From an uncultured Acidobacteriota bacterium (GTDB lineage: Bacteria > Acidobacteriota > Thermoanaerobaculia > Multivoradales > JAHEKO01): a DNA stretch of 64,000 nt. Positions 5,908 through 46,930 of this stretch are shown here, piece after piece (positions within the stretch are counted from its first letter, which is position 1; every line of letters starts with the position of its first letter). Location: NCBI GenBank assembly GCA_963713825.1, contig CAVQNG010000003.1:448001-512000 (forward strand), in the 5' to 3' direction. Both the position numbers and the translations under genes were made by a program. The notes under the pieces were generated by a model. That model did no database searches. It was not told the DNA's origin and worked only from the letters and a program-made list of their open reading frames with translations.

Positions 5908-6025
5908 TGGCGGAGGGGGTGGGATTCGAACCCACGGACCGCGTGAACGGTCGCCGGTTCTCAAGACCGTTGCACGCATTCCAAACCAGACAAAAGCAGA
6001 CTAATCAGAACCAAGAGAGACCAAC
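5908..6025 (-). repeat. Junction J2: uninterrupted 3' fragment of tRNA-Ser (5908-5969) plus arm A2
   Basis: tggcggagggggtgggattcgaacccacggaccgcgtgaacggtcgccggttctcaagaccg, lacking the 5' acceptor strand and D arm; followed by an AGAC array like 43574-43630. Confidence 0.85.
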
Positions 6026-6029
6026 TGCC

Positions 6030-6290
6030 GCCGGGGGTCGGGTGACCGTCGGCGACGCCGACAGCGGCCGGCAGGCTACCGCCGGCCGTGTGGGCGCTGC
6101 CAACCCCGGCACCGGGCAGTCGGGCTCCGCCGGCTGGGTGCGTGGCGAGGACGGTGCCGCCGTGCGCAAGGGTGACGACTTCTATGCCGGCAAGGATGGC
6201 AACGTCTACCAGCGCAACGATCAAGGGGACTGGAACCAGGTCGAACGCTCGGGCCAAAGGCAGGGCGTCCAGGGGAGGATTCCGCGGCGG
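6030..6290 (+). pseudogene. Fragment of a Gly-rich secreted protein (C-terminal-type region)
   Basis: Codon-like stretch ...DDFYAGKDGNVYQRNDQGDW with no start of its own, trapped between J2 and J3. Confidence 0.45.
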
Positions 6291-6337
6291 CGGCCGCAGG
6301 CGCTGAGGGCCTCGCAACGACATCCGAAGCCGCTCTC

Positions 6338-6523
6338 GAGTGGACCACGGACCTTGAGTCCAAGCTGCTCAATAGGGAGAAAGTGGCGAAGGGGCAGGCG
6401 CGGCGATGCAGTGAAGCCGACTCCTGATGTAGAGGAGCCCCTTGTGGGCTCCCTCGAGAGGGGGCAGGCCCCTGCCCTACAACTTGAATGTCACAACACC
6501 TGACAACGAAGCGACGGGCTTCT
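6338..6523. repeat. Junction J3: arm B end, tRNA CCA stub, partial 50-bp unit, REP, arm A
   Basis: tggaccacgg..ttgagt..ctcaatagggagaaagtggcg as at 53474-53521; REP at 6428-6481; acaacacctgacaacgaagcgacggg. Confidence 0.85.
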
Positions 6524-6738
6524 TGACCGTCAATTGCCCATACAACTGTCTGGCCTACCGGCCATCTGTCTGTAAAATCAGACATAATAAAGATGCAATA
6601 TACCCTCAGCCCACCGGTTCGAAATCTCCAAAGTACTGAAAACGGAGAACTTATCTACTTGACCACGAATCGGTACGGGACTTGCCCTCTCCTTGGGGGA
6701 CGACGGAACACTTCCATCGAACCCAAAGGAGAGAAACG

Positions 6739-7371
6739 ATGCGGAAGAAGATCGCCTGCCTCGCTACGATCGCGCTCACGAGCACCTCACTCTCGGCTCA
6801 GGACACCGGGTGGCTTGCACGTGCCGTCGGAGGCTGGGATAGCCTCCTCAGCCCAGTTGGTGTCTCGGAGAGCGCGGGCGACTTCAACTACCACTTCACC
6901 AACGACCTCCACGTGGGTCTCGAAGGTGAGTACCGCTTCAATCGGCGCCTCGGACTGGAGCTCGCCATTCACCAGAGTCGGCCCGACATAGTGGTCGGTG
7001 CAGAGATTGGCGACGATTTCGTCAGCCTGAGAGATAGCATCACGTACCGGCCCCTGACGGTGGGACTCGACGTGCATCTGACCCCGGATCGTCGCGCCGA
7101 TTTCACTCTTACTCCTCTCATCGGCCACGCCTTCTTCAGCGATCTCGACTTCGAGACGTCAAGTGTGACGCCCCGATTCAACAGCGGCAGCGATCTGATG
7201 TGGGGCGGCGCAGCCGCCGTGGATGTCGGCATCGGCGATGGGCCCTGGACCGTTTCGTTTGCTCTTCGGTACCTCGATGCCACACTCGAGGCAGTTGACG
7301 ACGGAGGCGTCGTGACGAGTCTCGATCTCTCTCCCTGGACAACCACCGTGGGGGTGGGTTATCGCTTCTGA
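6739..7371 (+). CDS. OmpW-like outer membrane beta-barrel
   Basis: RBS AAGGAG, signal peptide, alternating beta strands, terminal GVGYRF. Confidence 0.7.
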   Translation: MRKKIACLATIALTSTSLSAQDTGWLARAVGGWDSLLSPVGVSESAGDFNYHFTNDLHVGLEGEYRFNRRLGLELAIHQSRPDIVVGAEIGDDFVSLRDSITYRPLTVGLDVHLTPDRRADFTLTPLIGHAFFSDLDFETSSVTPRFNSGSDLMWGGAAAVDVGIGDGPWTVSFALRYLDATLEAVDDGGVVTSLDLSPWTTTVGVGYRF

Positions 7372-7402
7372 GACCCGGCGCTGGCCGGCCCTGGCCCTCC
7401 AG

Positions 7403-8797
7403 TTGAGTTGGGCGATCGTTCTTCTACTCGGCCTGCTGGCTGCCGCGCCGGCCGGCGCAGTCGAGCCAACCCCTGAGATTGCCAGTGGTCGTTTGCCCAG
7501 CTTCTTCATAGAGACGATCATCATCGAGGACTCCACCAGGTTCTCACCTGATCTCATCCTTGCGGAGTCACGGCTCGTGGAGGGCCAGGAGTACAGCGAA
7601 CGGGAACTACGCGACGCCTTGTTCCGCATTGTTCGGCTGCCGCTCATTCTCGACGCAGAGTTCTCTCTGAGGCGAGGGACCCAGAGGGGGCGTTTTCAGC
7701 TCGTCATACAGGTCGATGAGGCTCGCCGTTGGTTCTTTGGGATGGAGGGATCAGCGATTCGATGGAGTCGTCCTGTCACGCTCTCCGGGATCTCGGCCGA
7801 GAACGTCGTCGAGAGCTTCTCCATTCTTGCCGGCCGTCGCTTCACCATCGGCCGCTACGGTGTCTTCTTCGCTGCGGTGGGAGGACAGGACGGATCTCTC
7901 AACCTGGGTTACAGCCACAATAATCTCTTCGGCCGGCGCATCCTGCTTCAGATCTCGGGAGCTTACAGCCGCTGTGGGCAAGCCCAAGTCTCTCCCCCCC
8001 TCGGCGATGAGGGAGATCAGGCATGTCGGGCCGAGATTCTAGACCTCGGCCTCGACCCGACCTTCAGTGCATGGGAGGCGGGCGAGGGAACCGCCCGAGC
8101 TCGGCTCAGCCTCGGTGTCCCCCTGAAAGGCAACCAGTCCATCCGTTTTGCCGGATCCTTCCTCGACACGGAGGGAGGCTTCCGCCGAGCCGTCTATCAG
8201 GATGATCCTGCACAGCTCGATTTCCTCCGCGATCGCACCGACTGGGAGCTGGCAGCCTCGTGGATACTCGACTCCCGCGACGACCCACTGTTCACCAGTG
8301 AGGGCCAGCGCTGGGAAGCAGGCCTCCAAGTCCGCTCGCTCGAGGCCGAAGTCGAGAGATGGGACTTCGAGAACTTGACGAGCTTCAAGACGGATCATGC
8401 GTCCCTGGAGGTCGGAGCACGGCTCGCCGGTTCGAAGTATTGGCCGCTGGGGCGCAAGGACGCGATCTGGGGTCGCCTCGACGCATTTCTCGGCCGCACC
8501 GATTTCTCCGGAGCTCTTACCGAGGATGACCGCATTCTCGAGGGCCAAGCGGATGTTTGGAGAGGTGGAGCCGCTTTTGGCTACGGCCGTTTTCTCCATC
8601 GGGTACGGACTGATGAGAAATGGCAGGAACTTCGCTGGGAGTCCGAGATCGAGGCCCTCTACTCCACCACCTCGCCCTCGTTCGACCTTCCCGAGAATCC
8701 GCTGGCCGGCTTTCGCGTCTCCAGCGGCCTGACCTGGCGCAGCAGCTGGGGGGTCTTCGGGCTCGAGCTCATCTACCAGGACCTGGGAGGAGACTGA
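7403..8797 (+). CDS. POTRA/BamA-like outer membrane protein
   Basis: Signal peptide, POTRA-like N-domain (ESRLVEGQEYSE), DSRDDPLF barrel motif. Confidence 0.6.
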   Translation: MSWAIVLLLGLLAAAPAGAVEPTPEIASGRLPSFFIETIIIEDSTRFSPDLILAESRLVEGQEYSERELRDALFRIVRLPLILDAEFSLRRGTQRGRFQLVIQVDEARRWFFGMEGSAIRWSRPVTLSGISAENVVESFSILAGRRFTIGRYGVFFAAVGGQDGSLNLGYSHNNLFGRRILLQISGAYSRCGQAQVSPPLGDEGDQACRAEILDLGLDPTFSAWEAGEGTARARLSLGVPLKGNQSIRFAGSFLDTEGGFRRAVYQDDPAQLDFLRDRTDWELAASWILDSRDDPLFTSEGQRWEAGLQVRSLEAEVERWDFENLTSFKTDHASLEVGARLAGSKYWPLGRKDAIWGRLDAFLGRTDFSGALTEDDRILEGQADVWRGGAAFGYGRFLHRVRTDEKWQELRWESEIEALYSTTSPSFDLPENPLAGFRVSSGLTWRSSWGVFGLELIYQDLGGD

Positions 8798-9445
8798 TTG
8801 CGCCGGCTCGCCGTCGTTCTCACTCTTCTCCTCGCGGCCGCCACGAGCCGGGCTGACCTTGGAGAACCGACTCTGGTGCTCGGACACGGAGATCGCCTCT
8901 TGGTCACGGATCTCCCCGCGATCCTCGGTGACGAGAAGGTAGCCGAACACCTCACCTCGGGCCTCACAACAACCCTCGTCCTCACGGTGAAGACGTCTCT
9001 GTCGGGTGCAGCCAAGCTCGAAGGAGGGGCCCATATCACCATTCGATTCGAGCTCTGGGACGAGGTCTTCAACGTAACCGCTTTCGGGGGCATGGGCCCA
9101 CCACAGAGCACCGTGGTGGAGTCGAAAGAGCAGCTCACAGCCTGGTGGCGGTCTCTCCGTCTTCCGGTCATGGCAGTCCCCGACAGCGAGGGCATCCGAG
9201 GGCGAGCCGAGATCACACTGGATGTGTTGCCGTTCTCCCGCTCGGAGGAGCTGGATACGGAGCGCTGGTTCTCCGAGTCGGTACTGCGGGCCGAAGAGGG
9301 TCGAAGGTCCGGCATCTCTCATCCGACCGAAGGGAAGGAGTCTCTTGCCGAGGTCTTGGACATCCTTATTGCCACCTCCATTCGCCGTCGATCCTTAACC
9401 TCCTATTCCTGGACAATCCCGTGGCCGGAGGGGAGCACACCATGA
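8798..9445 (+). CDS. Secreted hypothetical protein in the two-component operon
   Basis: Signal peptide; abuts both neighbouring genes. Confidence 0.6.
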   Translation: MRRLAVVLTLLLAAATSRADLGEPTLVLGHGDRLLVTDLPAILGDEKVAEHLTSGLTTTLVLTVKTSLSGAAKLEGGAHITIRFELWDEVFNVTAFGGMGPPQSTVVESKEQLTAWWRSLRLPVMAVPDSEGIRGRAEITLDVLPFSRSEELDTERWFSESVLRAEEGRRSGISHPTEGKESLAEVLDILIATSIRRRSLTSYSWTIPWPEGSTP

Positions 9446-10650
9446 AGATCCGTGAGCCGATCCTGGTTCTCCTGCTGATGGTGGTGGGAGCCACCACGCT
9501 GTTCACCTTCTTTCACCGCCAGATGGCAGGAGCCTCGCTGGCCTTCGGGACACAGCCGGAAGTCCTACAAGCCCTTTCCGCGTCCCTGGAAGATCAACGG
9601 CAACTCGCCCGGTTGGACCCTGCCGGTGAGACGACCTATCGGCAGCACTTCGACGAGTTGGAGACAACGCTGCACCGGCTGCAGATTCTCGAGCAGAGCC
9701 GCGAGGAGCTCACGCGGCGTTATGAGCTCCTCCTGCTCGGACTCACCGGACTGAGCGTGATTCTGGTCGCCGGTGGCTACGTCCTTCTCCAGGCTCGACA
9801 ACAGGCCCGGCTCAGTCGGGTCGATACCGCAATCACGGCGCTAGCAGAAGGTCGCACCGACCTGAAGGTGGGAATTCAGGGTCGCGACACGGCTGGCCGA
9901 ATCGCCGCGATGATTGAACGCACATCGAAAGCGATGGCTCTCGACCGGCAGCGGCTCGCAGCGTTACGGAACCTCTCCGCCTGGCAGGAGGCCTCTCGCC
10001 GACAGGCGCACGAAATGAGGACTCCACTCACCGGTCTCCAGCTCGAGCTCGACCGTCTCGATGAATTGCTCATTCAGCTAGGCGCCAATCGAAACGTCCG
10101 CGACCGATTGGACAGCGCCCGGCAGGAGCTCGGACGCCTCGCAGATTTCACCACCGGCTTTGCAGGTTTCGCAAGGCTTCCCGAACCCAAGAAGCGGGAC
10201 CACGATCTAGTCGCCCTCGTCACCGAGTTCATCGACACCTATCGGGAGGCCTGGCCTGAAGTCGACCTGCGTTACCCATCTTCAGAGCTGATCAGCGCCC
10301 AGGTCGACCGGGATCTCATCCGTCAGGTCCTGGTCAACCTGTGCGACAACGCGGCCCAGGCGGGGGCGCAATCGATTACCGTCGAAACCACCAAGGACAC
10401 GAGCAACGTTGTGGTCGAGGTCGCCGACGACGGCGGCGGAGTCGACGCAACGGTCGCAACACGCCTATTCGAGCCCTACGCGACGACTCGCGATCTTGGA
10501 CAGGGCATGGGTCTGGGCCTTGCCATCAGCAAGAAGGTCCTCCTCGACCACGGGGGGGACATCGAGCTCGTTGCGACCTCGAGCGCTGGCACGATTTTCA
10601 GGCTGACCCTTCCAAGGACCTCCGACACTCAGAAGGAAGCCACCTCATGA
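9442..10650 (+). CDS. Sensor histidine kinase with HAMP domain
   Basis: Two TM segments, AHEMRTPL H-box, NLCDNA N-box, DDGGG, GMGLGL; ATGA overlap with the previous gene. Confidence 0.9.
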   Translation: MKIREPILVLLLMVVGATTLFTFFHRQMAGASLAFGTQPEVLQALSASLEDQRQLARLDPAGETTYRQHFDELETTLHRLQILEQSREELTRRYELLLLGLTGLSVILVAGGYVLLQARQQARLSRVDTAITALAEGRTDLKVGIQGRDTAGRIAAMIERTSKAMALDRQRLAALRNLSAWQEASRRQAHEMRTPLTGLQLELDRLDELLIQLGANRNVRDRLDSARQELGRLADFTTGFAGFARLPEPKKRDHDLVALVTEFIDTYREAWPEVDLRYPSSELISAQVDRDLIRQVLVNLCDNAAQAGAQSITVETTKDTSNVVVEVADDGGGVDATVATRLFEPYATTRDLGQGMGLGLAISKKVLLDHGGDIELVATSSAGTIFRLTLPRTSDTQKEATS

Positions 10651-12014
10651 CCTCGGTCCTCATTGTCGAAGACGATCCAAAGATCCGCGCCACGCTCCTG
10701 TTTCAACTTCGCGAGGAGGGCTTCGCTCCCGAAGGAGTCACCAGTGCCGAAAACGCTCTCCAGGAGATGAACAGTGCACTTCCTGACCTCCTGATACTCG
10801 ACGTCCGACTGCCAGGGATGAGTGGTGTTGAGCTAGTGCATCAGCTGGTTAAAGAAGAGAGGCTACCGCCGACGGTTATCATCTCGGGCGAAGCCTCCAT
10901 CAGCGAAACGGTGGAAGCGCTTCAACTCGGTGTTCACGAGTTCATCGAGAAGCCGTTCTCGAAGGAGCGCCTGCTCCGGTCCATCACCAACACCCTCGAG
11001 CACAACTGCCTGCGCCAACGCGTGGCAGCACTCGAGACCGAGCTCGGTATCGACCGGGAGATTCTCGGAGACTCCGAAGCGATTGGCCGTCTTCGAGAGC
11101 AGATTACTCGAGTGGCGCTCACCGACGCCCGGGTTCTGATTCGCGGCGAGAGTGGGACCGGCAAGGAGCTCATCGCCGACGCCATCCACCGCGGTAGCTC
11201 GAGAAGCGAGCGGCCCTTCGTCAAGGTGAACTGCGCCGCGCTGCCCCCCCATCTCATCGAGGACGAGCTCTTCGGCCATCTTCGAGGGGCCTTCACGGAC
11301 GCGAGGCGCGACAAGCCGGGCCTTTTCGAGGTGGCTGACGGTGGAACGCTCTTCCTCGACGAAATCGGTGACATGGAGCTGGCGCTTCAGAGTCGCCTCC
11401 TGCGTGTGCTCGAGGACGGCAAAGTCCGCCGCCTGGGAGACACAAGGGAGCGCACCGTGGACGTGAGAATCGTCACGGCTACACATACCGACCTCGAAGC
11501 TGCGGTGGGTGATGGGCGATTCCGTGAGGATCTCTATTTCCGACTGGCCCACGTGCCCTTGGAGGTTCCTCCTTTGCGGGAACGGACCGGGGACATCGCC
11601 CTGCTCTTCAAACACTTCCTCAGGATTCACAGTCGGAGGCAGCGGCGCGCCGAGCTCGGCTTCGAATCGACGGTTCTCGAGCAGCTCGAGACGCTCGCTT
11701 GGCCCGGGAATGTCCGCGAGCTGTCGAACCTTTGCGAACGACTCGTCGTCTTCGCTGCCGACCCCGTTACTGTGGAGCAGCTACCGGAGCGCTATCGGAT
11801 CCGAGCCAAGGAACTGCCAGGCAACGGCCTGTCAGCCCTGGAGCCCAGTGCGCCGATCCTGCCCTTGCGTGACCTTCGTAGCCTCGTCGAACGCGAGTAC
11901 ATCGAGCGCGTGCTTCATCACACGGCCGGCAATATCACCGCAGCGGCCAAGCTCCTGGGTCTTCAAAGGTCCTATCTTTACGAAAAGATGGCCAAGCTCG
12001 GCCTACGACCCTAA
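10647..12014 (+). CDS. Sigma-54-dependent response regulator (NtrC/NtrX family)
   Basis: Receiver domain, GESGTGKE, GAFTDA, FLDEIG, WPGNVREL, Fis-type HTH. Confidence 0.92.
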   Translation: MTSVLIVEDDPKIRATLLFQLREEGFAPEGVTSAENALQEMNSALPDLLILDVRLPGMSGVELVHQLVKEERLPPTVIISGEASISETVEALQLGVHEFIEKPFSKERLLRSITNTLEHNCLRQRVAALETELGIDREILGDSEAIGRLREQITRVALTDARVLIRGESGTGKELIADAIHRGSSRSERPFVKVNCAALPPHLIEDELFGHLRGAFTDARRDKPGLFEVADGGTLFLDEIGDMELALQSRLLRVLEDGKVRRLGDTRERTVDVRIVTATHTDLEAAVGDGRFREDLYFRLAHVPLEVPPLRERTGDIALLFKHFLRIHSRRQRRAELGFESTVLEQLETLAWPGNVRELSNLCERLVVFAADPVTVEQLPERYRIRAKELPGNGLSALEPSAPILPLRDLRSLVEREYIERVLHHTAGNITAAAKLLGLQRSYLYEKMAKLGLRP

Positions 12015-13032: not shown

Positions 13033-13258
13033 GGACCGCGGGCATTGAGTCCCAGCTACTCAATAGGGAGAAAGTATCCCAAAGTGTCAGCGATGTCCTG
13101 AGGTCAATGTGTCAACCATGTCCCGAGGTTGTACACCTTGCGGGCGCCCTCGGGAGGGGGCAAGCCCCTCCCCGTTCACCCTGATAGTCACAACACCTGA
13201 CCACGAAGCGACGGGGCTTCGCGGTCAAGGGGGATTGTTGTGGTCGATGCTCAACAGC
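13033..13258. repeat. Junction J4: arm B end, IS481-like end, partial REP, arm A
   Basis: ggaccgcgggcattgagtcccagctactcaatagggagaaagt; gggagggggcaagcccctcccc; acaacacctgaccacgaagcgacggggcttc...gattgttgtggtcgatgctcaa. Confidence 0.85.
13081..13135. mobile_element. Isolated IS481-family terminal end
   Basis: Reverse complement TGTACAACCTCGGGACATGGTTGACAC...CAGGACATCGCTGACAC: TGT terminus with two GACATnGnTGACAC repeats 25 bp apart. Confidence 0.6.
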
Positions 13259-13365
13259 GGCGAGACTGCCCCACGCAAGGATCAGGGAAGACCCTCACCT
13301 CCTGGGACCACTTGAACGGCACTTCGTTGGCTCCAAGAGAACCGCAGATTCGTGAAACATTGCCC

Positions 13366-19363: not shown

Positions 19364-19550
19364 TTGTCGGAGGGGCCCACTGAGGGTTCAGAACCCAACC
19401 TGAGGGTCCACCGAAACGGACCAGGATGGACCACGGTCATTGAGTCACCGATTGATGTAGGGGCGGCCCTTGCGGCCGCCCGAGGGAAGAACACGCCCCT
19501 CCCCTGCATTTTGAGAGTCACAACACCTGACAACGAAACGACGGGGCTTC
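19364..19550. repeat. Junction J5: arm B, REP, arm A (no tRNA core)
   Basis: ggtccaccgaaacggaccaggatggaccacggtcattgagt; REP at 19456-19508; acaacacctgacaacgaaacgacggggcttc. Confidence 0.85.
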
Positions 19551-20547: not shown

Positions 20548-20752
20548 GGCTCCGAAATACCTCTTCTGGCCACGTAGACTTATCGGAAGGACTTATCCGT
20601 GACTCACGGACATTGAGTGAACTCTCGGTGCAGGGCCGGCCCTCACGGCCGCCCGCGGGAGGGGGCAAGCCCCCTCCCCTTCATGCTGAAAGTCACATCA
20701 GCTGACCACTATGCGACGGCGCCTCTCGGGCAGAGGGGATTGTCGTGGTCGC
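20548..20752. repeat. Junction J6: arm B, REP, degenerate arm A
   Basis: ctccgaaatacctcttctggccac...cattgagtgaactctcgg; REP at 20629-20683; ggcagaggggattgtcgtggtc. Confidence 0.8.
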
Positions 20753-23607: not shown

Positions 23608-23727
23608 TGGCCGAGGGGTGGAATTCGAGCACGGATGGGCAGGCCTGGGGGTGCAGTGAAGCCGACTCCTGATGTAGGGGAGCCCCTTGCGGGCTCCCTC
23701 GGGAGGGGGCAAGCCCCTCCCCTTGTA
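23608..23727. repeat. Junction J7: degenerate tRNA 3' end, partial 50-bp unit, REP
   Basis: tggccgaggggtggaattcgagcacgg...gcagtgaagccgactcctgatgtagggg...gggcaagcccctcccc. Confidence 0.8.
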
Positions 23728-29083: not shown

Positions 29084-29171
29084 AGGACAGAGCCGCAATC
29101 CGAGGCTGCTCGCCCGAGTCGACCAGACCGCCAGGAATCTCGAGTAGCCCAAGGTGTGCCGCAGCACCCCC

Positions 29172-29545
29172 CAAAGTCCACAGAAATGCACCACCCGTGG
29201 ACCACACGGGCATTGAGTGGACTCTCGGTGTAGGGGCGTCCCTTGCGGGCACCCGCAGGAGGGGGCAAGCCACTCCCCTACAAAGTGAATTTCTGGAATG
29301 GCGGAGAGGAAGGGATTCGTACACGGAGGGGCAGGCGCGGGGATGCAGTGTCGGCGACCATCGGGAGGCAACCCTTGGACCGCGTGAACGGTCGCCGGTT
29401 TTCAACACCTCCGGTTCCCTACTACTGACAACACTCCACAGCAACTGACAACTAAGCGACGGGGCTTCTTGGGCAGAGGGGATTGTTGTGGTCGATGCCG
29501 AGGGTTGTGGTTGGTTGTGGCTTCGGGGACCAGGAGTGGACCACG
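29172..29545. repeat. Junction J8: arm B, REP, tRNA-Ser 3' fragment with one 50-bp insert, arm A
   Basis: B 29172-29228, REP 29229-29282, tRNA fragment 29299-29406, A up to gagtggaccacg at 29545. Confidence 0.9.
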
Positions 29546-31347: not shown

Positions 31348-31501
31348 CCTGGAACTCCCCCCGCATCGCAACCTCGATGTCGTTGATGGACTCCAGAGCG
31401 CGCCGTAGCGTGCCTCGAGCGACCTGCCCTTCACTCAAGAGAAAAAACCTATGAGTCCGACTGGAGATCAAGACCGAAACCCTGTGGAACTCTCTGCCAT
31501 T

Positions 31502-31640
31502 GGCAGGCCCTCCCCTGCGTCCTCCAGTTCACAACACCTGACAACGAAGCGACGGGGCTTCACTGCCAGGCGTGATTGTTGTGGTCGATGCTCAAGAGTG
31601 GTGGTTAGTTGCGGTCAAATGGACCGATAGTGAACCAAGA
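31502..31640. repeat. Junction J9: REP end plus arm A
   Basis: ggcaggccctcccctgc; acaacacctgacaacgaagcgacggggctt...gattgttgtggtcgatgctcaagagtggtggttagttg. Confidence 0.85.
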
Positions 31641-33690: not shown

Positions 33691-33800
33691 AGACGAAATC
33701 CGTAGTCCGGAGGCCGGGATCTCGGCGGGCCTACTTGAACTTCTCGATCAGAGCCGTGTAACAGGATGCTTCGTGAAGAGGATTGAAGCTGGGGTCAGCA

Positions 33801-33840
33801 CTTCTAAAGTCCCACGGAAACGGACCCAGAGTGGACCACG
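33801..33840. repeat. Junction J10: arm B remnant
   Basis: cttctaaagtcccacggaaacggacccagagtggaccacg resembles 43317-43357. Confidence 0.6.
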
Positions 33841-36061: not shown

Positions 36062-36216
36062 CTCGTGCCTCCTCGCTAGTTCTCTTCACAGGGCCCCGCG
36101 GGCAACCGTGTCGCCGGTCATTTGCAGCTACCTTCGTCCGGGTGCGAGGGTACAAGATGTCACTCACCTCCAACGCCACCCAAAGAGGTGGGGAGAGGCG
36201 GTCGAGCAGGTCCAGC

Positions 36217-36248
36217 GGTCCACCGAAATGGACCACCCGTAGACCACG
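36217..36248. repeat. Junction J11: arm B remnant
   Basis: ggtccaccgaaatggaccacccgtagaccacg. Confidence 0.7.
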
Positions 36249-36311
36249 CGGCTGGATGAGGGACGTGTGTCAAGCCAAACGTTGGGGTGGTTCGGATCGC
36301 GCCTTCATCCT

Positions 36312-38657: not shown

Positions 38658-39110
38658 GCTATCTCAATCTTCGCGGACCGCTCCCGTGGCTCCAAGATAC
38701 CTTCTCTGGCCAGGGAGACATGTCGAAAGGCCTCACTGATGGTTCAAGAGCCGCCCACAAGGCCCACTGAAATGGACCACGAGTATTGAGTGAACTCTCG
38801 GTGTAGGGATGTCCCTTACGGGCGCCCGCGGGAGGGGGCAAGCTGTACGTTCTCACGACATAGGTAACACTCGTGTATCAGGACATCGGTAACACCTGAG
38901 GCAAGCTAGTGCCTTTAGTAGAGGAGGTGCTGGATGCCCTGGAAGGAGACCGAAGGGAGGCACCCGCGGACCGCGTGAACGGTCGCCGGTTTTCAAGACC
39001 TCCGATCTCCCACAACTGACAACCCTCCACAACATCTGACAACGAAGCGACGGGGCTTCGCTGGCAGAGGTGATTGTTGTGGTCGATGCTCAAGAGTGGT
39101 GGTGAGTTGG
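38658..39110. repeat. Junction J12: long arm B, REP, IS481 remnant, tRNA fragment, arm A
   Basis: B 38658-38801, REP 38802-38843, tRNA fragment 38962-39000, A 39001-39110. Confidence 0.9.
38844..38951 (+). mobile_element. IS481-family left end with first transposase codons
   Basis: TGT terminus, gacataggtaacac/gacatcggtaacac repeats, RBS GGAGG and ATG 38934 giving MPWKET, then truncated. Confidence 0.7.
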
Positions 39111-39211: not shown

Positions 39212-40498
39212 ATGAGAACCGGCAGTTGGGTCCGAGTTGCATCTTGGTTGGGGGGTATCTCTCTCATCACATTGGCAGTCCTGCTCGGTGTCGCGGGCGC
39301 GGTCCTCGGGTTTCTCGGCGCCTCGGCTCTCACTTCCCGTATCCCCCTACTTGCCGCGGTCGGTCTTGGGCTCTGCCTGGGCATCGCTACGGGTCTCGGC
39401 TGGCTGGCCGGGACACTGCTCGCCCGGGTCCGACGACGACGCATTGCGATCGGTGTCGGTTGTGGAACAGCGCTAATTGTTGTCGTCGTATCCTCACTCA
39501 CCGTCTTCGAGCCGCTGGTGCCCGCAGCAGAGATCATCCCTCTCGCCGTGCCTCCGGATGTTGCGTTCTGGGACCTCCCGACTGGCTCCCGAATCGCGTA
39601 CCGCGAGGTCGCCGCCATTGCGAGCGCCAAGAAGGCACCAGTGATCTATCTTCATGGAGGGCCTGGCGCTGGAGTCGTCTCGGTGGAGAAGCTCGTGCAA
39701 GCCTTCTCGTTCCCAGCTTGGCTCGGGCACGATGTTCTCCTCTATGACCAAATAGGCGGCGGACTCTCCGGAAGATTGAGTGATGTCTCCGAGTACACCC
39801 TCGAGCGCCATATCTCCGATCTCGAGGCGATCCGACTGCGGATTGGGGCCGAGACGGTCATCCTGATTGGAGAGTCCTGGGGCGCCGAGCTGGCGACTCA
39901 TTACCTTGCCACCTATCCCGACAGGCTCGATCGCCTCATACTCGTCTCTCCAGGTCCCCTCTATCCCAAGGAATGGGGAGACCGAGATCCATGCGACCTC
40001 AAGGGTACCGCCTCGACCGAGATCCAGGAGCGTTTCGAGCGATTCTTCGGACCCCGCTTTTGGGCGGCGGCGCTACTGCTCGAGGTCAACCCAGTTGCAG
40101 CTCATGCGTTCCTCCCCGATACCGAGGGCGACGCCATAATGCGTCGAATGATCTCTCTGTTGTTACCGGGAGGAGTGTGCGACCCCTCAGAGCTTCCTCG
40201 CGGTGAGGACTTCGCTTTCGGGATGTGGGGAAATATCATGACCGATGAGAACTACTCCGAGCGAGAGAACCGAATCGAGGACTCCCTGTCTCGGCTCAAG
40301 ACACCGGTCTTGATCCTCAGAGGAGAGTGCGACTACTGCATCCCCGAGGTAGCGAGCCAATACGAGTCGATGTTCTCGGAATCCACACTGGTCCATGTGG
40401 AGGACGCGGGGCACTTTCTTTGGCTCGAAAAACCGGATGTTCTGGCCGAGGTTGTAGGCTCGTTTCTCTCCGGAGAGCCCGGGCCACATCCTCATTGA
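39212..40498 (+). CDS. Membrane-anchored alpha/beta hydrolase (proline iminopeptidase-like)
   Basis: Three N-terminal TM segments, LHGGPG, YDQIG, GESWG, AGH. Confidence 0.85.
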   Translation: MRTGSWVRVASWLGGISLITLAVLLGVAGAVLGFLGASALTSRIPLLAAVGLGLCLGIATGLGWLAGTLLARVRRRRIAIGVGCGTALIVVVVSSLTVFEPLVPAAEIIPLAVPPDVAFWDLPTGSRIAYREVAAIASAKKAPVIYLHGGPGAGVVSVEKLVQAFSFPAWLGHDVLLYDQIGGGLSGRLSDVSEYTLERHISDLEAIRLRIGAETVILIGESWGAELATHYLATYPDRLDRLILVSPGPLYPKEWGDRDPCDLKGTASTEIQERFERFFGPRFWAAALLLEVNPVAAHAFLPDTEGDAIMRRMISLLLPGGVCDPSELPRGEDFAFGMWGNIMTDENYSERENRIEDSLSRLKTPVLILRGECDYCIPEVASQYESMFSESTLVHVEDAGHFLWLEKPDVLAEVVGSFLSGEPGPHPH

Positions 40499-40502
40499 AG
40501 CC

Positions 40503-40886
40503 CCACTCGAAATGGACCACCCGTGGACCACGGACATTGAGTGACCAATCGGCCGGCAGGGGCACCGGCCGCTTCACGTATTGGAGATGGCGGAGGGGGT
40601 GGGATTCGAGCACGGAGGGGCAGGTGCGGGGGTGCAGTGCCGGCGACCAACGGGAGCCCAACACGGAGGGGTAGGCGAGGGGATGCAGTGAAGCCGACCA
40701 TCGGGAGGCAACCTTGGGCCGCGTGAACGGTCGCCGGTTTTCAAGACCTCCGGTTCCCTACTACTGACAACACTTCACAACACCTCACAACGAAGCGACG
40801 GGGCCTCTCGGGCAGAGGGGATTGTTGTGGTCGATGCTCGAGAGTGGTCGTCAGTTGTGGTCTAGGGGACCGAGAGTGGACCACGG
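40503..40886. repeat. Junction J13: arm B, GC hairpin, tRNA fragment with two inserts, arm A
   Basis: tRNA fragment 40588-40748 with inserts at 40610-40710; A up to gagtggaccacgg. Confidence 0.92.
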
Positions 40887-40941
40887 ACGCAGCCTTCAGA
40901 TCACAGAGGGATCTCTTCGTGGCGGCTTTACTTGTAGACCC

Positions 40942-41511: not shown

Positions 41512-43107
41512 ATGGGTCATGTGTTGAGAACGGGCGCCACGTTAGCAGTGACGATTGTGCTAGCCGGTTGCGGCCAACGCGAGGAACGACAACCGCGGCC
41601 CCAACCCCCAGACGGCGCGGTCGCAGGGGATTTCGACGTAGTCCCCTGTGTTCATGTGGCACGCGACGTTGAGTACCCGGCCGAGTGCGGCACGCTGATC
41701 GTCCCGGAAAACCGCCATGACCAGACCTCCCGCCTGATTGCCCTGCCCGTCAATCGTATCCTCGCCTCGGGCGATGCGCCGGATGAACCGATCTTCCACC
41801 TCACAGGCGGGCCGGGGATGTCGAATATGGCCTACAGCACGGTGGAGTGGTTCCAGGAGAACCACGACATTGTTCTAGTCGGCTTTCGCGGCGTGGACGG
41901 AACGGTCTATCTCAGCTGTCCGGAAGTAACCGAGGCGATGGGCTCCGGGCTGTCGCTGATGAGCCGAAACGGCATGGCGGCCCAGAGTGAGGCCTATGCC
42001 GCCTGCTCCGCGCGGTTGACCGCAGAGGGCATCGATCTGGACGGCTACACGCTCTTGGAAGTCGTTGATGATGTGGAGGCCGCACGTCAGGCTTTGGGCT
42101 ACACACGAATCAACCTGGAAAGCGGCAGCTACGGTACGCGCCTTGCTCAGATCTATACCTGGCGATATCCCGACAAAGTCCACCGCAATGCGATGGTGGC
42201 AGTCAATCCGCCGGGCCGCTTCTGGTGGGACGGAGCGATCCTGGAAGAGCAGATCCTGCGTTACTCGACCCTGTGCGCCGAAGATGAGTACTGCTCCTCG
42301 CGCACCAACGATCTCGCCGCTTCTATCCAGACGGCGCTGGACAACATGCCGGAGCGCTGGCTGGTCTTCCCGGTCGATCGCGACGCGGTGCTCTTCGCCA
42401 CCTTCATGGGTCTTTACTCCACAGATGGCGCTGCATCCACCTTCGACATTTGGCTTGCCGCCGCAGAGGGCGACTACAGCGGCATGGCGTTGGTATCTGC
42501 AGCGCTGATGTTCATGCTGCCGACCGACATGGCCTGGGGCGACAGCGCGTCGAAAGCCGGCAGCGCGGACTATGACTTCGACCCGACAGCCGACTATGTC
42601 GCCGAGGTTACGCCAGATCCCTATCTCATCGGCTCGCCGGGTTCGTCGATGGGCTGGGCCTCGGCGGCCACCTGGCCAGCCAAGAAGATCCCCGATGAAT
42701 ACCGCACGGCACAGCCCTCATCGGTGGAGACGCTGCTGCTCAGCGGCTCGCTGGACGTCTCCACCCCAGCTCAGAATGCCCGGAACCAACTACTCCCCCT
42801 TTTGGAGAACGGCGAGCAGGTCGTGCTTTCCGACTTCGCGCACACCGGTGACCTCTATTATCTCCAGCGAGAAGCGACGCGGCACTTGCTGAGAAACTTC
42901 TTCGCTACCGGGGAAGTGGACGCTTCGCTCTACCAGCCGAACACGGTGAACTTCAAGCCAGACTGGGGCTTCCCACTTATCGCCAAGCTCCTGTTGGGCG
43001 GCGCGGCACTGACGCTGATCATCGTAATGCTCCTGATTCGATTCTTCTTTCGCTTGGGGAGACGAGTGTTGATGCGGCACCAGACTGGAGGGCTCCCTGC
43101 AGGATGA
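41512..43107 (+). CDS. Alpha/beta hydrolase lipoprotein (TAP-like peptidase)
   Basis: LAGC lipobox, CGTLIVPENR, GGPG, GSYG, D..TP, H. Confidence 0.85.
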   Translation: MGHVLRTGATLAVTIVLAGCGQREERQPRPQPPDGAVAGDFDVVPCVHVARDVEYPAECGTLIVPENRHDQTSRLIALPVNRILASGDAPDEPIFHLTGGPGMSNMAYSTVEWFQENHDIVLVGFRGVDGTVYLSCPEVTEAMGSGLSLMSRNGMAAQSEAYAACSARLTAEGIDLDGYTLLEVVDDVEAARQALGYTRINLESGSYGTRLAQIYTWRYPDKVHRNAMVAVNPPGRFWWDGAILEEQILRYSTLCAEDEYCSSRTNDLAASIQTALDNMPERWLVFPVDRDAVLFATFMGLYSTDGAASTFDIWLAAAEGDYSGMALVSAALMFMLPTDMAWGDSASKAGSADYDFDPTADYVAEVTPDPYLIGSPGSSMGWASAATWPAKKIPDEYRTAQPSSVETLLLSGSLDVSTPAQNARNQLLPLLENGEQVVLSDFAHTGDLYYLQREATRHLLRNFFATGEVDASLYQPNTVNFKPDWGFPLIAKLLLGGAALTLIIVMLLIRFFFRLGRRVLMRHQTGGLPAG

Positions 43108-43217
43108 GATCGCAAACTGGCGCGACTGATTGGGCGATCCACGGCCTGACCTGACCCCCTGAAACGAGTCCAGTTGGAGGGTTAGGGAGCCGCGCTTCAG
43201 ACACTTTCAGGCTTCTA

Positions 43218-43725
43218 GGTAGCTATCTCAGTATTCCCGAACCGCTCCCGCAGCTCCGAGATGCCTCTTCTGGCCGCGGAGACATGTCGGAAGGGCTTCC
43301 TGATGGGTTCCGAAGTCCTTCTGAAGGTCCACGGAAATGGACCACCCGTGGACCACGGGCATTGAGTGACCAATCGGCCGGCAGGGGCGCCGGCCGCTTC
43401 ACGTATTGGAGATGGCGGAGGGGGTGGGATTCGAGCACGGAGGGGCAGGTGCGGGGGTGCAGTGCCGGCGACCAACGGGAGCCCAACACGGAGGGGTAGG
43501 CGAGGGGATGCAGTGAAGCCGACCATCGGGAGGCAACCTTGGACCGCGTGAACGGTCGCCGGTTTTCAAGACCGTTGCACGGCTTCCAAGCGAGACAAAT
43601 CCAGACTAAAAGGGACCAAAGGAGACTAATGACCGTCGATCTTGTGGGGAAACATCATTTTGTCTGGTTTTGTCCCGATTGGTCTGGTTTGGGCTCCTCG
43701 GTGTACCACAGGTGTACCACGGGAT
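43218..43725. repeat. Junction J14: long arm B, GC hairpin, tRNA fragment with two inserts, arm A2
   Basis: 43334-43573 nearly identical to 40509-40748, followed by an AGAC/GTCT array and two TGTACCAC. Confidence 0.92.
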
Positions 43726-43783
43726 GTGCACCACCCGAACTCGCCACTTCGGGTCCACACAGCCGCAGAACTGATTCAGGAGC

Positions 43784-44680
43784 CTACTTTGGAAACAACA
43801 GTTTCAGCTGCAATCGTAGCGTCCACGTTTCACCCTGATTCTGCAGGTTGGGTGCGTCGGCAATCCGCGGCTTCGGCTTCTCAACGTTATAGAAGGCCTG
43901 CATCGAAAGGTCCAGGGGCTGCTTGCCCCACTTGACGATCCTGCCAAACCCGCCGCCGAGTGGTACCGTCCATCGGTTGCTGCTCGAGGCCGTCCAGTTG
44001 GCAGTGATCACCGGCACCGACGTTAGGTACCAGCCCTTGTTCAGGTTGTAGTTGATGATGGGCTGCAGCGTCATCAGGTTTACACTCTCGGCATCGTCAT
44101 CCCCTGCGAAGGACCATACATTCTGAACCAGGACACCCAGAACCCAGCTTCCGGGCATGGTCAGCACCACGACGCCGGCTCCGCCCGACCACTTCTCGCT
44201 GGCCCAGCTGTCCTCGGTTGCAGAAGGGAACAGAAAGGACGGCCCGACACCCCAGATGATCTTTCCCGGCTGAGACGGCGAGATGAAACCGGTGTAGCTG
44301 ATGTCTCCCAGACCCGACCGACTGTCACCTACCTCCGAGAAGACCGCCTCTTGATAAATCAAAGGCACGATGCCACGGTTGATCAGGTTGAATTTCTTAC
44401 TCAGACCTACCGGATAGACGGGCTGGATGTTGAGAACGTTCGAAATCGCATCGTCCGGTCCGATACCAAAGCTGGTGTTGTTCTGAAACGGCAGGCTGAC
44501 GAGATTGCCAATCGGGTTCTGCGACTGTTTGGCGAGATCCGACTCACCCTCCTCCTGCGCTGCGGCAGAGACCAAGGAAAACACCAAAGCCAGGACTGTG
44601 GTTACGGTTCCTCTTCGTGCTCTAGTCACACTAGCGACGCGAACCTTGGGCCACCCCCGAACCTCGGGTAGTCTGCTCAC
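43784..44680 (-). CDS. Outer-membrane barrel-like hypothetical ('neuromedin U'-annotated family)
   Basis: LAKQSQNP..L.SLPFQNN, GLGDI, WTVPLGGG, terminal LLFPK; true start probably somewhat downstream. Confidence 0.7.
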   Translation of the reverse strand: MSRLPEVRGWPKVRVASVTRARRGTVTTVLALVFSLVSAAAQEEGESDLAKQSQNPIGNLVSLPFQNNTSFGIGPDDAISNVLNIQPVYPVGLSKKFNLINRGIVPLIYQEAVFSEVGDSRSGLGDISYTGFISPSQPGKIIWGVGPSFLFPSATEDSWASEKWSGGAGVVVLTMPGSWVLGVLVQNVWSFAGDDDAESVNLMTLQPIINYNLNKGWYLTSVPVITANWTASSSNRWTVPLGGGFGRIVKWGKQPLDLSMQAFYNVEKPKPRIADAPNLQNQGETWTLRLQLKLLFPK

Positions 44681-45933
44681 TGCTGTTTCTCGTTGAGTCC
44701 AAACTGCTCGTTGACCTCGTCATATATGGGCTGAATCACGTCCTTCATGTCGTATTTGCCGCCTGCGATCATGTCCGAATAGGGGATCATGAGACTTGGA
44801 TCGGGCACCAGCGGCTCCTTGGTGGCCGGAGGTGGCCAGACGTCTTCATCAACAACTGCCATCCGTACGCGAATGTCGTCCTTGGTTATGTTCCACACCA
44901 TGTAGTCCACGGAAAGGCTCAGCGGACCCTCGTAGGTAGTTCGGATGCGAGCACCGACGTCAGGTCCGATGTCCCAATCATTGAAGAAGTGATATGCGAC
45001 CGCCATCCGCGGCTTGATGATCGACATCATCTTGCCAAACGCCTCTGGTGCGGTGTGGATCTGGGTAGCCACCGATAGAGCGCCTTGTGGTGTGAACTTG
45101 AACCTGTCGATCATGGCCGGTACGGGAATGAAACACTCGTGAATCGCCAGGTCGGCGCCCTTCGCATACTCCGCGTACCACTTGTTCGGATAAGTATCAC
45201 CTCCGAACACGAATTTGAGATCGTTCCACTCGACGATGAAACTCACTGGACCATCCAGGGAATGGATGGCTGGGATGGACCGAATCGTGACGCCGTTCTC
45301 CTGATAGATGATCTCATTCACGCCCTTGTAGTCGAACTCGGTAACCTCAAAAGGTACATATCCGCGTGGATCGGTAATTCCCTTGCGGCCATCGAGGTCC
45401 CAGGTGAGCGCCTTGTACAAATGATCCAGCGCGTATTTCGTGCCCCTCTCCGGTGTATCACCGCTCGGACCCCAAACGCGTAACGGTCCCTGGCGGCCGG
45501 ACAACGCGCCACCGACAAACAGTGCATCCAGATCACCGAAGTGGTCGGTATGCAGGTGGCTCAGGAAGACCTTGTCGAGGAAGTTGTAGGGGATTTGTAG
45601 TGCTGCGATCCGCTCTGCCGATCCGGTGCCAGCATCGAATACAAACTTGTCACCGTTCCCCAGTTCGAGCAGCCAGCACGACGCCGCTTGTTTCGGACGA
45701 GCCGTTGGCATGCCAGTGCCACAGGCAATCAACCGCATTTCGTCCGGACCCAGTGCCTCGCTGTTTGGCGTATAGAAGTCGCGCTCGCGGGGTTCGATCG
45801 GAGAAATCTCCTCCGGTGGAGTCGCCGCTACGAGAGAAATGAAGCCTACGGTCGCAGCCATGCCGACTGCGAGCCCAGCCACGAACGTGAACCTCTTTGC
45901 TCTGCCTACTCTCATTTTTCGATTCCGCATCAT
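44677..45933 (-). CDS. Secreted MBL-fold metallo-hydrolase (RNase Z/arylsulfatase AtsA-like)
   Basis: CGTGMP, DAGTG, SHLHTDH, GDT, HE, H motifs. Confidence 0.85.
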   Translation of the reverse strand: MMRNRKMRVGRAKRFTFVAGLAVGMAATVGFISLVAATPPEEISPIEPRERDFYTPNSEALGPDEMRLIACGTGMPTARPKQAASCWLLELGNGDKFVFDAGTGSAERIAALQIPYNFLDKVFLSHLHTDHFGDLDALFVGGALSGRQGPLRVWGPSGDTPERGTKYALDHLYKALTWDLDGRKGITDPRGYVPFEVTEFDYKGVNEIIYQENGVTIRSIPAIHSLDGPVSFIVEWNDLKFVFGGDTYPNKWYAEYAKGADLAIHECFIPVPAMIDRFKFTPQGALSVATQIHTAPEAFGKMMSIIKPRMAVAYHFFNDWDIGPDVGARIRTTYEGPLSLSVDYMVWNITKDDIRVRMAVVDEDVWPPPATKEPLVPDPSLMIPYSDMIAGGKYDMKDVIQPIYDEVNEQFGLNEKQQ

Positions 45934-45999
45934 CAACCTCCTGCCGCTTCCCATGCGGCGACAACCAACACCAGATGTGTTCGTCTGAGCCTGTATTAT

Positions 46000-46015
46000 T
46001 AGACGCCGGCGTATA
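46000..46015. promoter_or_regulatory. Putative TetR operator
   Basis: Palindrome tagACGCCGGCGTata between the divergent hydrolase and TetR genes. Confidence 0.45.
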
Positions 46016-46052
46016 GTATCATTTGTGTACGCAATCGTCTAGTAATGTTAGA

Positions 46053-46622
46053 ATGCACCTCGTGTCGTCCAAGAACAAACAGCCGCGAAGGAAGAAGGAC
46101 GACTGGCTCAGAGCGGCCCTTGAGGTGTTTGAGAAAGAAGGTATCGAAGGGGTCAGGGTGGAGAGACTGGCGCGGGATCTCAACGTGGCGAAGAGCGGCT
46201 TCTACTGGCATTTCAAAGACCGTGATCAGCTGTACGACGAGTTGCTCGGACTCTGGGAACAAGAATCCACACTGGACGTGACGACGAGCGACGCGACTGT
46301 CTCTCTACCCCCCGCGGACCGACTCTTGCGAACGGCCTACCTGATCTGGGTACACGACCTCACGCGTTTCGATCTGCCTTTCCAGGCCTGGGCTCAGAGA
46401 GACCCCAAGGTTCTCGACCGGGTGCATCAAGTCTACGAGCAGAGGCTTTCCTGGATCCGACAGATGTTCCGCGAGCTCGGTTTCAAGGGCGAAGACCTCG
46501 AGATGAGGACCCGCTTCTTCGTCGTCTACCACGCCTGGGAGCGTACCGTGTTTCCGCAGCTGCCAAAGGCTCAGGCGAAGCGACTGATCAAACGACGGGT
46601 GGATCTGCTCGTTCACCCCTAG
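46053..46622 (+). CDS. TetR/AcrR family regulator
   Basis: GVRVERLARDLNVAKSGFYWHFKDR HTH. Confidence 0.92.
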   Translation: MHLVSSKNKQPRRKKDDWLRAALEVFEKEGIEGVRVERLARDLNVAKSGFYWHFKDRDQLYDELLGLWEQESTLDVTTSDATVSLPPADRLLRTAYLIWVHDLTRFDLPFQAWAQRDPKVLDRVHQVYEQRLSWIRQMFRELGFKGEDLEMRTRFFVVYHAWERTVFPQLPKAQAKRLIKRRVDLLVHP

Positions 46623-46681
46623 GCCGACCGCTTTGTTGCTCCAGTGCTCCACTGCTTCACTGCCGGGTGGGCGGGCGGGAA

Positions 46682-46930
46682 TGGCGGAGGGGAAGGGATT
46701 CGAGCACGGAGGGGTAGGCGCGGGGATGCAGTGAAGCCGACCATCGGGAGGCAACCCTTGGACCGCGTGAACGGTCGCCGGTTTTCAAGACCTCCGATCT
46801 CCCACAACTGACAACACTCCACAACACCTGACAACGAAGCGACGGGGCTCCGCTGGCAGGGGGGATTGTTGTGGTCAATGCTCAAGAGTGGTGGTTAGTT
46901 GTGGTCTAGGGGACCGAGAGTGGACCACGG
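46682..46930. repeat. Junction J15: tRNA-Ser 3' fragment with one 50-bp insert plus arm A (attR-like)
   Basis: Identical to 53517-53577 apart from the insert at 46704-46753; complete arm A follows. Confidence 0.92.

Follow-up and report, generated by a model that had tools for sequence, protein, structure and literature searches.

A cassette array with attP-like junctions at the tRNA-Ser(UGA) gene of an uncultured Acidobacteriota bacterium, with no recombinase gene found in the array

The window analysed here is a stretch of 64,000 nt from an uncultured Acidobacteriota bacterium of the class Thermoanaerobaculia (contig CAVQNG010000003.1; the genome is called G000 below). Its single tRNA gene encodes a tRNA-Ser(UGA), recognized by ARAGORN and by the Rfam tRNA model (63.9 bits), and is the only Ser-UGA gene among the 49 tRNAs that ARAGORN detects in the genome. 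Between the 3' end of this gene and rsgA (3482-4609) extends a cassette array of 49 kb (window 4.65-53.6 kb), divided into about 15 segments of 0.4 to 6.5 kb, many of them with a single gene, by junctions that contain a partial copy of the tRNA between long conserved arms (A or A2, and B). All junctions have the same orientation as the tRNA. A BLASTN search with each module against the whole 5.4-Mb assembly showed that arms A, A2 and B and a 50-nt unit found in the T-loop of several copies are nearly restricted to the positions 4669-53516 of the window.

The cargo consists of ordinary accessory genes on both strands. Among the window open reading frames (ORFs), Pfam identified alpha/beta hydrolases, beta-lactamase-fold and metallo-beta-lactamase-fold proteins, TetR regulators, an S46 peptidase, a major facilitator superfamily (MFS) transporter, a two-component pair, a BLUF protein and others. 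Two large ORFs near the tRNA that received no name (51830-53224 and 49924-51288) encode secreted repeat proteins, as judged from their translations. Apart from the tRNA, Rfam detected no structured RNA in the window, and no promoter-like or terminator-like site was found in the region 53250-53800. On the side of the tRNA opposite to the array, at 3.2 kb, lies the seryl-tRNA synthetase gene (56846-58138), in a neighbourhood that is kept in the relatives G033 and G025.

The original prediction had named six fragments of the tRNA-Ser 3' part, at 5908, 29299, 38962, 40588, 43413 and 46682, all broken in the anticodon stem. Using the tRNA region as query against the window, BLASTN recovered same-strand partial copies at all six places, in the pieces 5908-5969, 29299-29319 with 29370-29405, 38968-39000, 40588-40609 with 40712-40748, 43413-43434 with 43537-43574, and 46682-46703 with 46753-46792. 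Chance is excluded as the source of these copies because the main pieces have E-values of 1e-13 to 1e-19. A formal alignment and a direct listing bore out the predicted ends: all six copies terminate at ...TTTTCAAGACC, with CAACACC in the 29299 copy and TTCTCAAG in the 5908 copy, and the shared end ...CCGGTTTTCAAGACC runs from the 3' strand of the anticodon stem through the loop and into the first three bases of the 5' strand. An arm follows immediately in every case, as had been claimed: arm A (TCCG...) in four copies (at 29409, 39001, 40749 and 46793) and arm A2 (GTTGCAC...) in two (at 5969 and 43574), the two A2 copies being identical at 44 of 60 positions (5969-6028 vs 43574-43633). The identity to the tRNA continues past the loop for 3 nt where arm A comes next and for 4 nt where arm A2 comes next.

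In nine genomes (G000 and eight relatives) we counted six intact tRNAs and 31 non-intact copies, two of which are doubtful (window 459 and L012:9626). The identity past the loop is of 3 nt in 18 copies, 4 nt in five and 5 nt in two, so that 25 of the 31 break within 3 to 5 nt; four copies have a substitution inside the ACC, one runs for 7 nt and one for 9 nt. The break point is nearly, not wholly, constant: the constancy that had been predicted holds for 6/6 window copies (3 or 4 nt) and is not kept by the two longest copies. The prediction had further placed a symmetric recombination core CCGGT-CTTGAAA-ACCGG at this point, with the loop as overlap. The pair is present in the intact tRNA, and the copies keep only ACC or ACCG of it. 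An overlap of 7 nt is plausible; judged by the letters, a crossover would be placed somewhere in the shared tRNA stretch, not specifically in the 7-nt loop. That the anticodon loop is a known crossover location agrees with the literature: Islander assigns 2083 of 3919 islands to an anticodon-centred class (PMC4383910), and a Klebsiella preprint reports symmetry on the flanks of the anticodon loop and an ICEAfe1 integrase that needs a 19-bp anticodon-loop sequence (10.1101/2020.11.02.365908).

Outside the array, a solitary tRNA-Ser(UGA) fragment occurs in the same genome at C1:146145-146235. It contains the tail of arm B, the tRNA 3' end and a truncated T-loop unit, with an identity of 7 nt past the loop (the full ACCGGTG); no recombinase ORF is evident by eye nearby, where no Pfam scan was made. 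In the window itself, a near-match of 19-20 nt to the core (CGCCGGTTTTGAAGACC) at 443-462, upstream of an FAD-oxidoreductase gene and left of rsgA, could be due to chance (blastn-short E-value 0.01) or be a very old outermost remnant.

A full junction begins with arm B (~190 nt), continues with the tRNA 3' part and closes with arm A (~139 nt) or A2, over ~390 nt in all (Table 1). Fifteen copies of arm A, from three genera, align with each other over about 139 nt. They share the near-invariant blocks GACGGGG, TGTTGTGG, GAGAGTGG and GTGGACC..GAGTGGACCAC, and beyond the last of these similarity is abruptly lost; the arm also has ACAAC repeats and a terminal GGACC-N6-GTGGACCAC. In arm A2, there are three repeats AGAC(A/T)A, and two copies of GGTGTACCAC close the arm. 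Arm B is conserved to the left of most tRNA copies; the alignment of 16 copies, from the genera g1, g5 and g11, reveals ~190 nt conserved in g1 and g5, terminating with ATGGACCAC-N2-3-GTGGACCAC (paired GGACCAC sites) and an ATTGAGT/ACTCAAT hairpin before the tRNA 3' end. The motif GTGGACCAC is present nine times in the window, always on the plus strand and always at a junction, for 0.76 copies expected; the rest of the genome has 47 copies, for a genome-wide expectation of about 64. Besides the six full junctions we detected nine degenerate ones, at 4669, 6337, 13033, 19400, 20600, 23629, 31525, 33800 and 36226. These, the conservation of arm B, the C1 fragment and the splits in the T-loop described below go beyond the original prediction. 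Long arms with direct repeats that flank a short core are the attP layout of arm-binding tyrosine integrases, and by analogy the full junction looks like an attP of the lambda or P4 type.

Table 1. Features of the tRNA-Ser(UGA) array and related stretches (window positions, unless a contig is given).
Feature	Position	Strand	Remarks
Leftmost junction remnant, directly after rsgA	4652..4711	+	start of arm A, 40/47 identical; tRNA part nearly erased
tRNA 3' copy, uninterrupted	5908..5969	-	57/62 identical; T-stem GTGGG/CCCAC
Arm A2, first ~60 nt only	5970..6030	+	compared with 43574-43633 (44/60)
Degenerate junction	6337..6520	+	arm B, tRNA end fused to T-loop unit, element H, distal arm A
Degenerate junction	13033..13260	+	arm B, element H, distal arm A
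Degenerate junction	19400..19550	+	arm B, element H, distal arm A
Degenerate junction	20560..20750	+	arm B, element H, distal arm A
Degenerate tRNA 3' end, T-loop unit (first 39 nt), element H	23608..23723	+
Arm B and element H	29150..29298	+	blastn, alignment
tRNA 3' copy, two pieces (29299-29319, 29370-29408)	29299..29408	-	one unit; loop CAACACC
Arm A	29409..29545	+	blastn, alignment
Distal arm A remnant	31500..31637	+
Arm B start fused to arm A end	33800..33840	+	comparison with L003
Solitary arm B remnant	36215..36260	+
Arm B and element H copy	38660..38843	+	blastn, alignment
tRNA 3' copy, truncated	38962..39000	-	acceptor end missing; tail of T-loop unit just upstream
Arm A, shortened	39001..39109	+	102/109 identical to 46793-46901
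Arm B copy	40496..40587	+	blastn
tRNA 3' copy, two pieces (40588-40609, 40712-40748)	40588..40748	-	two tandem units, 40610-40711
Arm A	40749..40886	+	blastn, alignment
Arm B copy and GC-rich hairpin	43225..43412	+	blastn, alignment
tRNA 3' copy, two pieces (43413-43434, 43537-43574)	43413..43574	-	two tandem units, 43435-43536; flanking T-stem halves mismatched
Arm A2	43575..43720	+	three AGAC(A/T)A repeats; terminal GGTGTACCAC-A-GGTGTACCAC
tRNA 3' copy, two pieces (46682-46703, 46753-46792)	46682..46792	-	one 50-nt T-loop unit, 46704-46752
Arm A	46793..46931	+	four ACAAC repeats, TTGTTGTGGTC; terminates at GGGGACCGAGAGTGGACCACGG
Arm B adjoining the tRNA 3' end	53330..53516	+	paired sites ATGGACCAC-GC-GTGGACCAC; hairpin ATTGAGT-N7-ACTCAAT
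Intact tRNA-Ser(UGA)	53517..53606	-	array anchor; ARAGORN and Rfam
Element H copies	6421-6489, 13136-13173, 19456-19508, 20622-20690, 23666-23723, 29222-29292, 38795-38843, 53968-53992
Fragment sites of other tRNAs (G000)	C11:3358, 9651; C14:85987, 102537, 111426; C1:6385, 30684, 36327; C3:669549; C3:1156457; C25:512191-512254

Four of the six copies are split in the T-loop, between GGGATTCGA and ACCC, either by one unit of 50 nt (29299 and 46682) or by two units in tandem (40588 and 43413). A profile search found 20 copies of this unit. Where it occurs in tRNA-Ser copies of G000, G001, G002, G004 and G005, it always lies at one fixed position in the T-loop. Two sites outside the tRNA-Ser copies have it as well: at C3:92346 (G000 C3:92250-92500) it comes after the T-loop of a tRNA-Glu 3' fragment, one of three tandem fragments ~105 nt apart, and at C5:195084 (C5:195050-195250) it splits a T-arm-like sequence next to a tRNA that has a second copy of its last ~20 nt 230 nt downstream. 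The unit itself shows, in its last 23 nt, a weak alignment to a tRNA-Ser 3' end. We rejected the idea of a tRNA intron, given the bacterial host, the copies lacking the tRNA 5' half and the presence of the unit after the T-loops of other tRNA fragments. The two halves of the T-stem match in all 16 classable uninterrupted copies and mismatch in 6 of the 21 interrupted ones (several of these rows being near-duplicates). Since the mismatches occur only in interrupted copies, the unit marks a second place where halves were re-joined, and an element using the T-loop class of attachment site may have left it as a scar. The description of the six fragments as displaced parts of the tRNA had to be given up for five of them, which are split in the T-loop or truncated and cannot have been the 3' half of the sole tRNA-Ser(UGA) of the genome: because there is only one such gene, the split copies cannot be former working halves, unless the unit arrived later.

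The comparison of junctions with each other shows that left and right halves have been re-joined. The stretch 40496-40748, composed of arm B and a tRNA copy with the rare double unit, is identical to 43321-43573 at 246 of 254 positions; past the ACC, the first continues as arm A and the second as arm A2, and A and A2 share only 31 of 67 positions. Conversely, the arms A at 39001 and 46793 are identical at 102 of 109 positions, yet their left sides are unlike. As like left halves precede unlike right arms and conversely, the halves were re-joined at or within the tRNA-derived stretch. On the sequences compared, this is the pattern to be expected of an exchange between two full junctions, not of insertions into a bare tRNA. 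We favour a reading in which integrase-less cassettes are moved by a tyrosine integrase supplied in trans that would act at the anticodon loop, junction by junction, as cassettes are exchanged in integrons; we consider its chances to be slightly better than even.

The same halves could have been re-joined without a dedicated enzyme, if a few old integrations had left junctions of ~300-400 nt that served since then as portable homology, with cassettes swapped by RecA-dependent double crossovers and gene conversion. The junction copies are alike enough for this (82-97% over 100-250 nt), the mismatches in the T-stem (6/21 interrupted vs 0/16 uninterrupted copies) could arise within such repeats, and no recombinase was found in the array searches. 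However, the similarity of junction types stops exactly at ACC or ACCG and not at scattered points, and homology alone would not hold the copies in one orientation with one end point. The sharp outer edge of arm A and its near-invariant blocks in three genera moreover suggest binding sites for a protein. We regard homologous recombination as quite improbable as the main process.

No recombinase gene was found in the array or in its counterparts. Pfam detected none among the 51 ORFs of the window, nor did a lax re-scan (E-value up to 5) of the 13 ORFs without a name. A six-frame search with PF00589 gave five matches in the genome and none in the window; PF00239 has one match in the genome, at C3:1339, far from the window, and no serine recombinase is found in the array. 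In the arrays of the relatives (8 loci in 7 genomes), 0/62 ORFs are recombinases, and in G033, where the array lies in a contig of 1.97 Mb, none of the eight PF00589 matches falls into it. A metagenome scan with the joint of core and arm A yielded 26 junction loci, which carry only cargo, with no recombinase in the 54 ORFs scanned (of 58 with at least 110 aa; four from L165, a duplicate of L153, were omitted). Six of these metagenomic loci contain arm B, an uninterrupted tRNA 3' part and arm A and adjoin only cargo genes. ORF scans of the window and of the relatives' arrays found neither genes nor remnants of transfer functions, integrative and conjugative elements (ICEs) or integrative and mobilizable elements (IMEs). 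With two arm patterns, the viral contigs gave two chance matches and none, respectively, hence nothing real, and a looser pattern in the genome_contigs scan recovered at least 119 loci from many phyla, several with the same junction.

The five PF00589 matches of the genome were considered as candidates for the integrase of the array and rejected, none of them being joined to tRNA-Ser sequence or to clusters of GTGGACCAC. Two are of Xer-like size, one lies beside tRNA-Lys(CUU) on contig C25, one is a fragment near a tRNA-Glu fragment, and one is P4-like, at the start of contig C35. Upstream of the latter gene is GGTTACCAC-TA-TGGTTACCAC, in the style of the arm sites. PF00589 matches are found in 45/45 genomes of the family; the two in G001 and the one in G002 are all of Xer-like size, in genomes that are incomplete.

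This lack of integrase sequences bears on another origin of the array, by accretion and decay: formerly self-sufficient islands or prophages would have inserted successively at the anticodon loop and later lost their integrase genes, leaving remnants like cis-mobilizable elements (CIMEs). Such a pathway has been published for tandems of ICEs, IMEs and CIMEs (PMC5704250) and for tycheposon islands (10.1101/2020.12.28.424599), many junctions of the window are decayed, and other tRNAs of this genome have ordinary displaced fragments, some of them near integrase genes or gene fragments. Against it, the six-frame search with PF00589 found no integrase remnant in the 49-kb array or in that of G033, though arms of 139-190 nt have stayed conserved across genera; many cassettes have a single gene; complete B-core-A junctions adjoin only cargo in the six metagenomic loci; and five of the six copies could not be a working 3' half. 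Tandems of three or more are also rare in Islander (4 of 3919 islands; PMC4383910). Accretion followed by decay appears rather unlikely to us.

The five further genomes of the genus all share the architecture of the array. For arm A, matches were found in 11 of the 44 other genomes of the family (5/5 in g1, 2/3 in g5, 3/5 in g11 and 1/3 in g20; the tallies include the unpublished genome G006, without match). The cassette content differs among congeners. In G004, whose core genes are 77-80% identical to those of G000, a cassette encoding a tetratricopeptide repeat (TPR) protein ends, with its arm B and a copy of element H, right at the intact tRNA (70.6-kb contig C80); from this point on, G000 has the 38962 copy and another four cassettes (14.5 kb). 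For the cassettes proximal to the tRNA (44650-53516), the cargo has no close match in the five congeners. Older cassettes are 92-99% identical to those of congeners over 1.6-4.2 kb and the 10.3-kb core flank is 75-80% identical, with short pieces up to 89%, a contrast that is suggestive only, because metagenome-assembled genomes may include mis-binned short contigs and, at repeats, chimeric assemblies; the cases within one contig (G004 C80 and G003 C50) are firmer. The position of rsgA varies as well: it marks the far edge of the array in G000, adjoins the tRNA directly in G003 and has junctions on both sides in G004.

The working tRNA genes were compared in the window (53517-53606) and at the loci L007, L002, L009 and L015. 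Their T-stem is AAGGG/CCCTT in G000, G004 and G025 and GTGGG/CCCAC in G003 and G033, a compensated double change, and GTGGG/CCCAC is also the T-stem of the uninterrupted 5908 copy of G000. This agrees with the classical model, where an incoming element brings a new 3' half to the tRNA and leaves the old half at the far end of the array.

Many junctions contain an insertion of element H, a GC-rich palindrome of ~54 nt with two hairpins (GGGGCG.CCCTTGCGGGC.CCC and GGAGGGGGCAAGCCCCTCCCC), at differing points. With 87 BLASTN matches on 13 contigs, in both orientations, it is a genome-wide repeat like the repetitive extragenic palindromic (REP) sequences, and a passenger rather than a part of the array system. 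Its spread could nevertheless suggest that the junction as a whole is a small non-autonomous repeat, a mosaic like miniature inverted-repeat transposable elements (MITEs) or bacterial interspersed mosaic elements (BIMEs), that has spread between resident genes, the cassettes being ordinary chromosomal genes. The junctions are indeed mosaic, and rsgA lies between junctions in relatives. On the other hand, arms A, A2 and B are limited to one locus of the 5.4-Mb genome, the junctions are all co-oriented with the tRNA, and copies of arms A or B at many unrelated loci were not seen in the 45 family genomes searched. Moreover, the gene content between junctions varies among congeners, which share cassettes far more similar than their core genomes. 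A repeat of this kind is thus very improbable.

In the favoured reading, of cassettes moved in trans, the enzyme would be a tyrosine integrase that has an arm-binding domain and whose gene lies elsewhere or on a helper element present only transiently. It would recognize both the arms and the sequences of the anticodon stem, and strand exchange would take place within the anticodon loop or next to it. A circle that keeps its 3' part intact would be able to enter at the tRNA itself; one whose 3' part is interrupted by the T-loop unit would persist only if it entered at a junction already present. The array would then operate as an integron does: the tRNA would be its end site, and all junctions would be equivalent cassette sites.

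Several observations weigh against this reading. Neither this genome nor the relatives, the viral contigs or the metagenome contigs yielded an integrase with arm sites that match. The junctions are 85-97% alike, and homologous recombination could also re-join halves of such similarity. Two copies run beyond the usual break point (C1:146232 of this genome by 7 nt, L012:7305 by 9 nt). The T-loop unit has no explanation in the model. The housekeeping gene rsgA, inside or beyond the array in G003 and G004, is not predicted by simple insertion at the tRNA, and the relatives, as metagenome-assembled genomes, are exposed to the mis-binning and chimeras mentioned above. Finally, no circular form or empty site was seen, in Logan contigs too short to show one. 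The stretch occurs in 18 public sequencing runs from 14 studies; in the four runs examined, contigs are mostly below 1 kb, and the joints have sides of 20-94 nt at 90% likeness, which repeats or other organisms could produce.

In a wider form, the locus would be a long-lived gene-capture platform of the Thermoanaerobaculia on a tRNA gene, with one attP-like site per cassette, an unlinked recombinase belonging to the host or to a rare helper, and a second, nested exchange point in the T-loop, of which the 50-nt unit would be the mark. We put this forward tentatively, as a possibility rather than as the probable case.

Among known systems, integrons resemble the array, as proposed here, in their logic, with a fixed end site, small cassettes with one site each, exchange between equivalent sites, the newest cassettes near the end site and arrays possibly far from the integrase gene. 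They differ by intI with an adjacent attI and attC hairpins, none of which is found here, the junctions being derived from a tRNA and long-armed (a site of 390 nt, attP-like, around a tRNA fragment), and by cassettes that are mostly promoterless and co-oriented, whereas the cargo ORFs of the array lie on both strands. Clusters of attC sites lacking integron-integrases (CALINs) are attC arrays without an integrase. Arrays of this type are mentioned in Alteromonas (PMC4119200).

The locus is a variant close to the A-site islands of Islander, the CIMEs, and the tycheposon and additive islands. As in Islander islands (PMC4383910), an intact tRNA is accompanied on the same replicon by co-oriented 3' fragments whose inner end lies at the anticodon stem-loop, with identity from the loop to the 3' end, and insertions are stacked at one tRNA. 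Islander islands, however, have their own tyrosine integrase and seldom form tandems of three or more, whereas the window has about 15 segments with an integrase in none (0/51 ORFs, no six-frame PF00589 match), and most fragments are broken in the T-loop. CIMEs (PMC5704250) likewise keep att sites at both ends, lack integration and transfer genes, occur in tandem at a tRNA 3' end and are moved by the integrase of another element; in the window, junctions flank the cassettes and no such genes were found among the ORFs. CIMEs are, however, decayed ICEs or IMEs beside a functional partner, whereas no partner, transfer or integration remnant or sign of such a decay was found in the window and the relatives' arrays, and the cassettes are small and numerous, with arms conserved across genera. 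The tycheposons of Prochlorococcus and the additive islands of Alteromonas (10.1101/2020.12.28.424599; PMC4119200) resemble the array by repeated insertion anchored at a tRNA, by partial tRNAs between blocks of niche cargo and by new blocks that push older ones inward. A tycheposon has its own recombinase, of the tyrosine or large serine type, and in many cases a replication module (10.1101/2020.12.28.424599), whereas the blocks of the array have neither (window Pfam and PF00589 searches; PF00239 only at C3:1339) and yet have an attP-like junction of ~390 nt each. Blocks without integrase may nevertheless be described for these islands. Our literature search found no paper linking Thermoanaerobaculia, an integrase and a genomic island.

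Islands anchored at tRNAs are usually explained by an integrase that they carry themselves. Here, about 15 cassettes and conserved, complete attachment sites are found with no recombinase, in a layout that recurs in relatives and in sediment metagenomes. Should the cassettes depend on an enzyme in trans for their movement, much of the flexible gene pool of these uncultured bacteria from sediment, including hydrolases, peptidases, kinases, transporters and regulators, would travel as minimal units of cargo plus site, which island finders that require an integrase would miss. The locus offers defined substrates for the search of the enzyme and the mapping of the crossover, namely B-core-A, the intact tRNA and the arm sites GGACCAC and ACAAC. 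The copies split in the T-loop indicate that partial tRNAs in such islands are not always former working halves.

Some further observations concern integrases and tRNA fragments elsewhere in the genome. The segment C35:1-8322, with the P4-like integrase gene, is 99.9% identical over 8 kb to the contig C173 of G003 (L020), while the core genomes are ~79% alike; it is either a shared mobile element or a binning artefact. On C25 (519438-524271), a weak arm-A-like stretch (519438-519517, 70% over 80 nt) precedes a paralogue of the 464-aa FQVN-repeat protein of the window, and 2-5 kb beyond it, beside tRNA-Lys(CUU), come an integrase gene and a 493-aa ORF. For this integrase element the search for an att repeat was negative; a 5' copy of the tRNA-Lys(CUU) (positions 1-64) lies 12 kb upstream, the integrase gene being beside the tRNA. 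Displaced 3' fragments of the Lys-UUU, Arg-UCG, Leu-UAA and Glu-CUC tRNAs also occur in the genome, beginning at positions 29-33. Within the window, the non-coding stretch of 250 nt at 49156-49407 contains a long inverted repeat (AACCGGCGCCGCC ... GGCGGCGTCCGGTT); it is single-copy in this genome, has no Rfam match, and is 91-93% identical to stretches of G003 C65 and G004 C201, which have a fragment of an integrase gene at a distance of ~850 nt.

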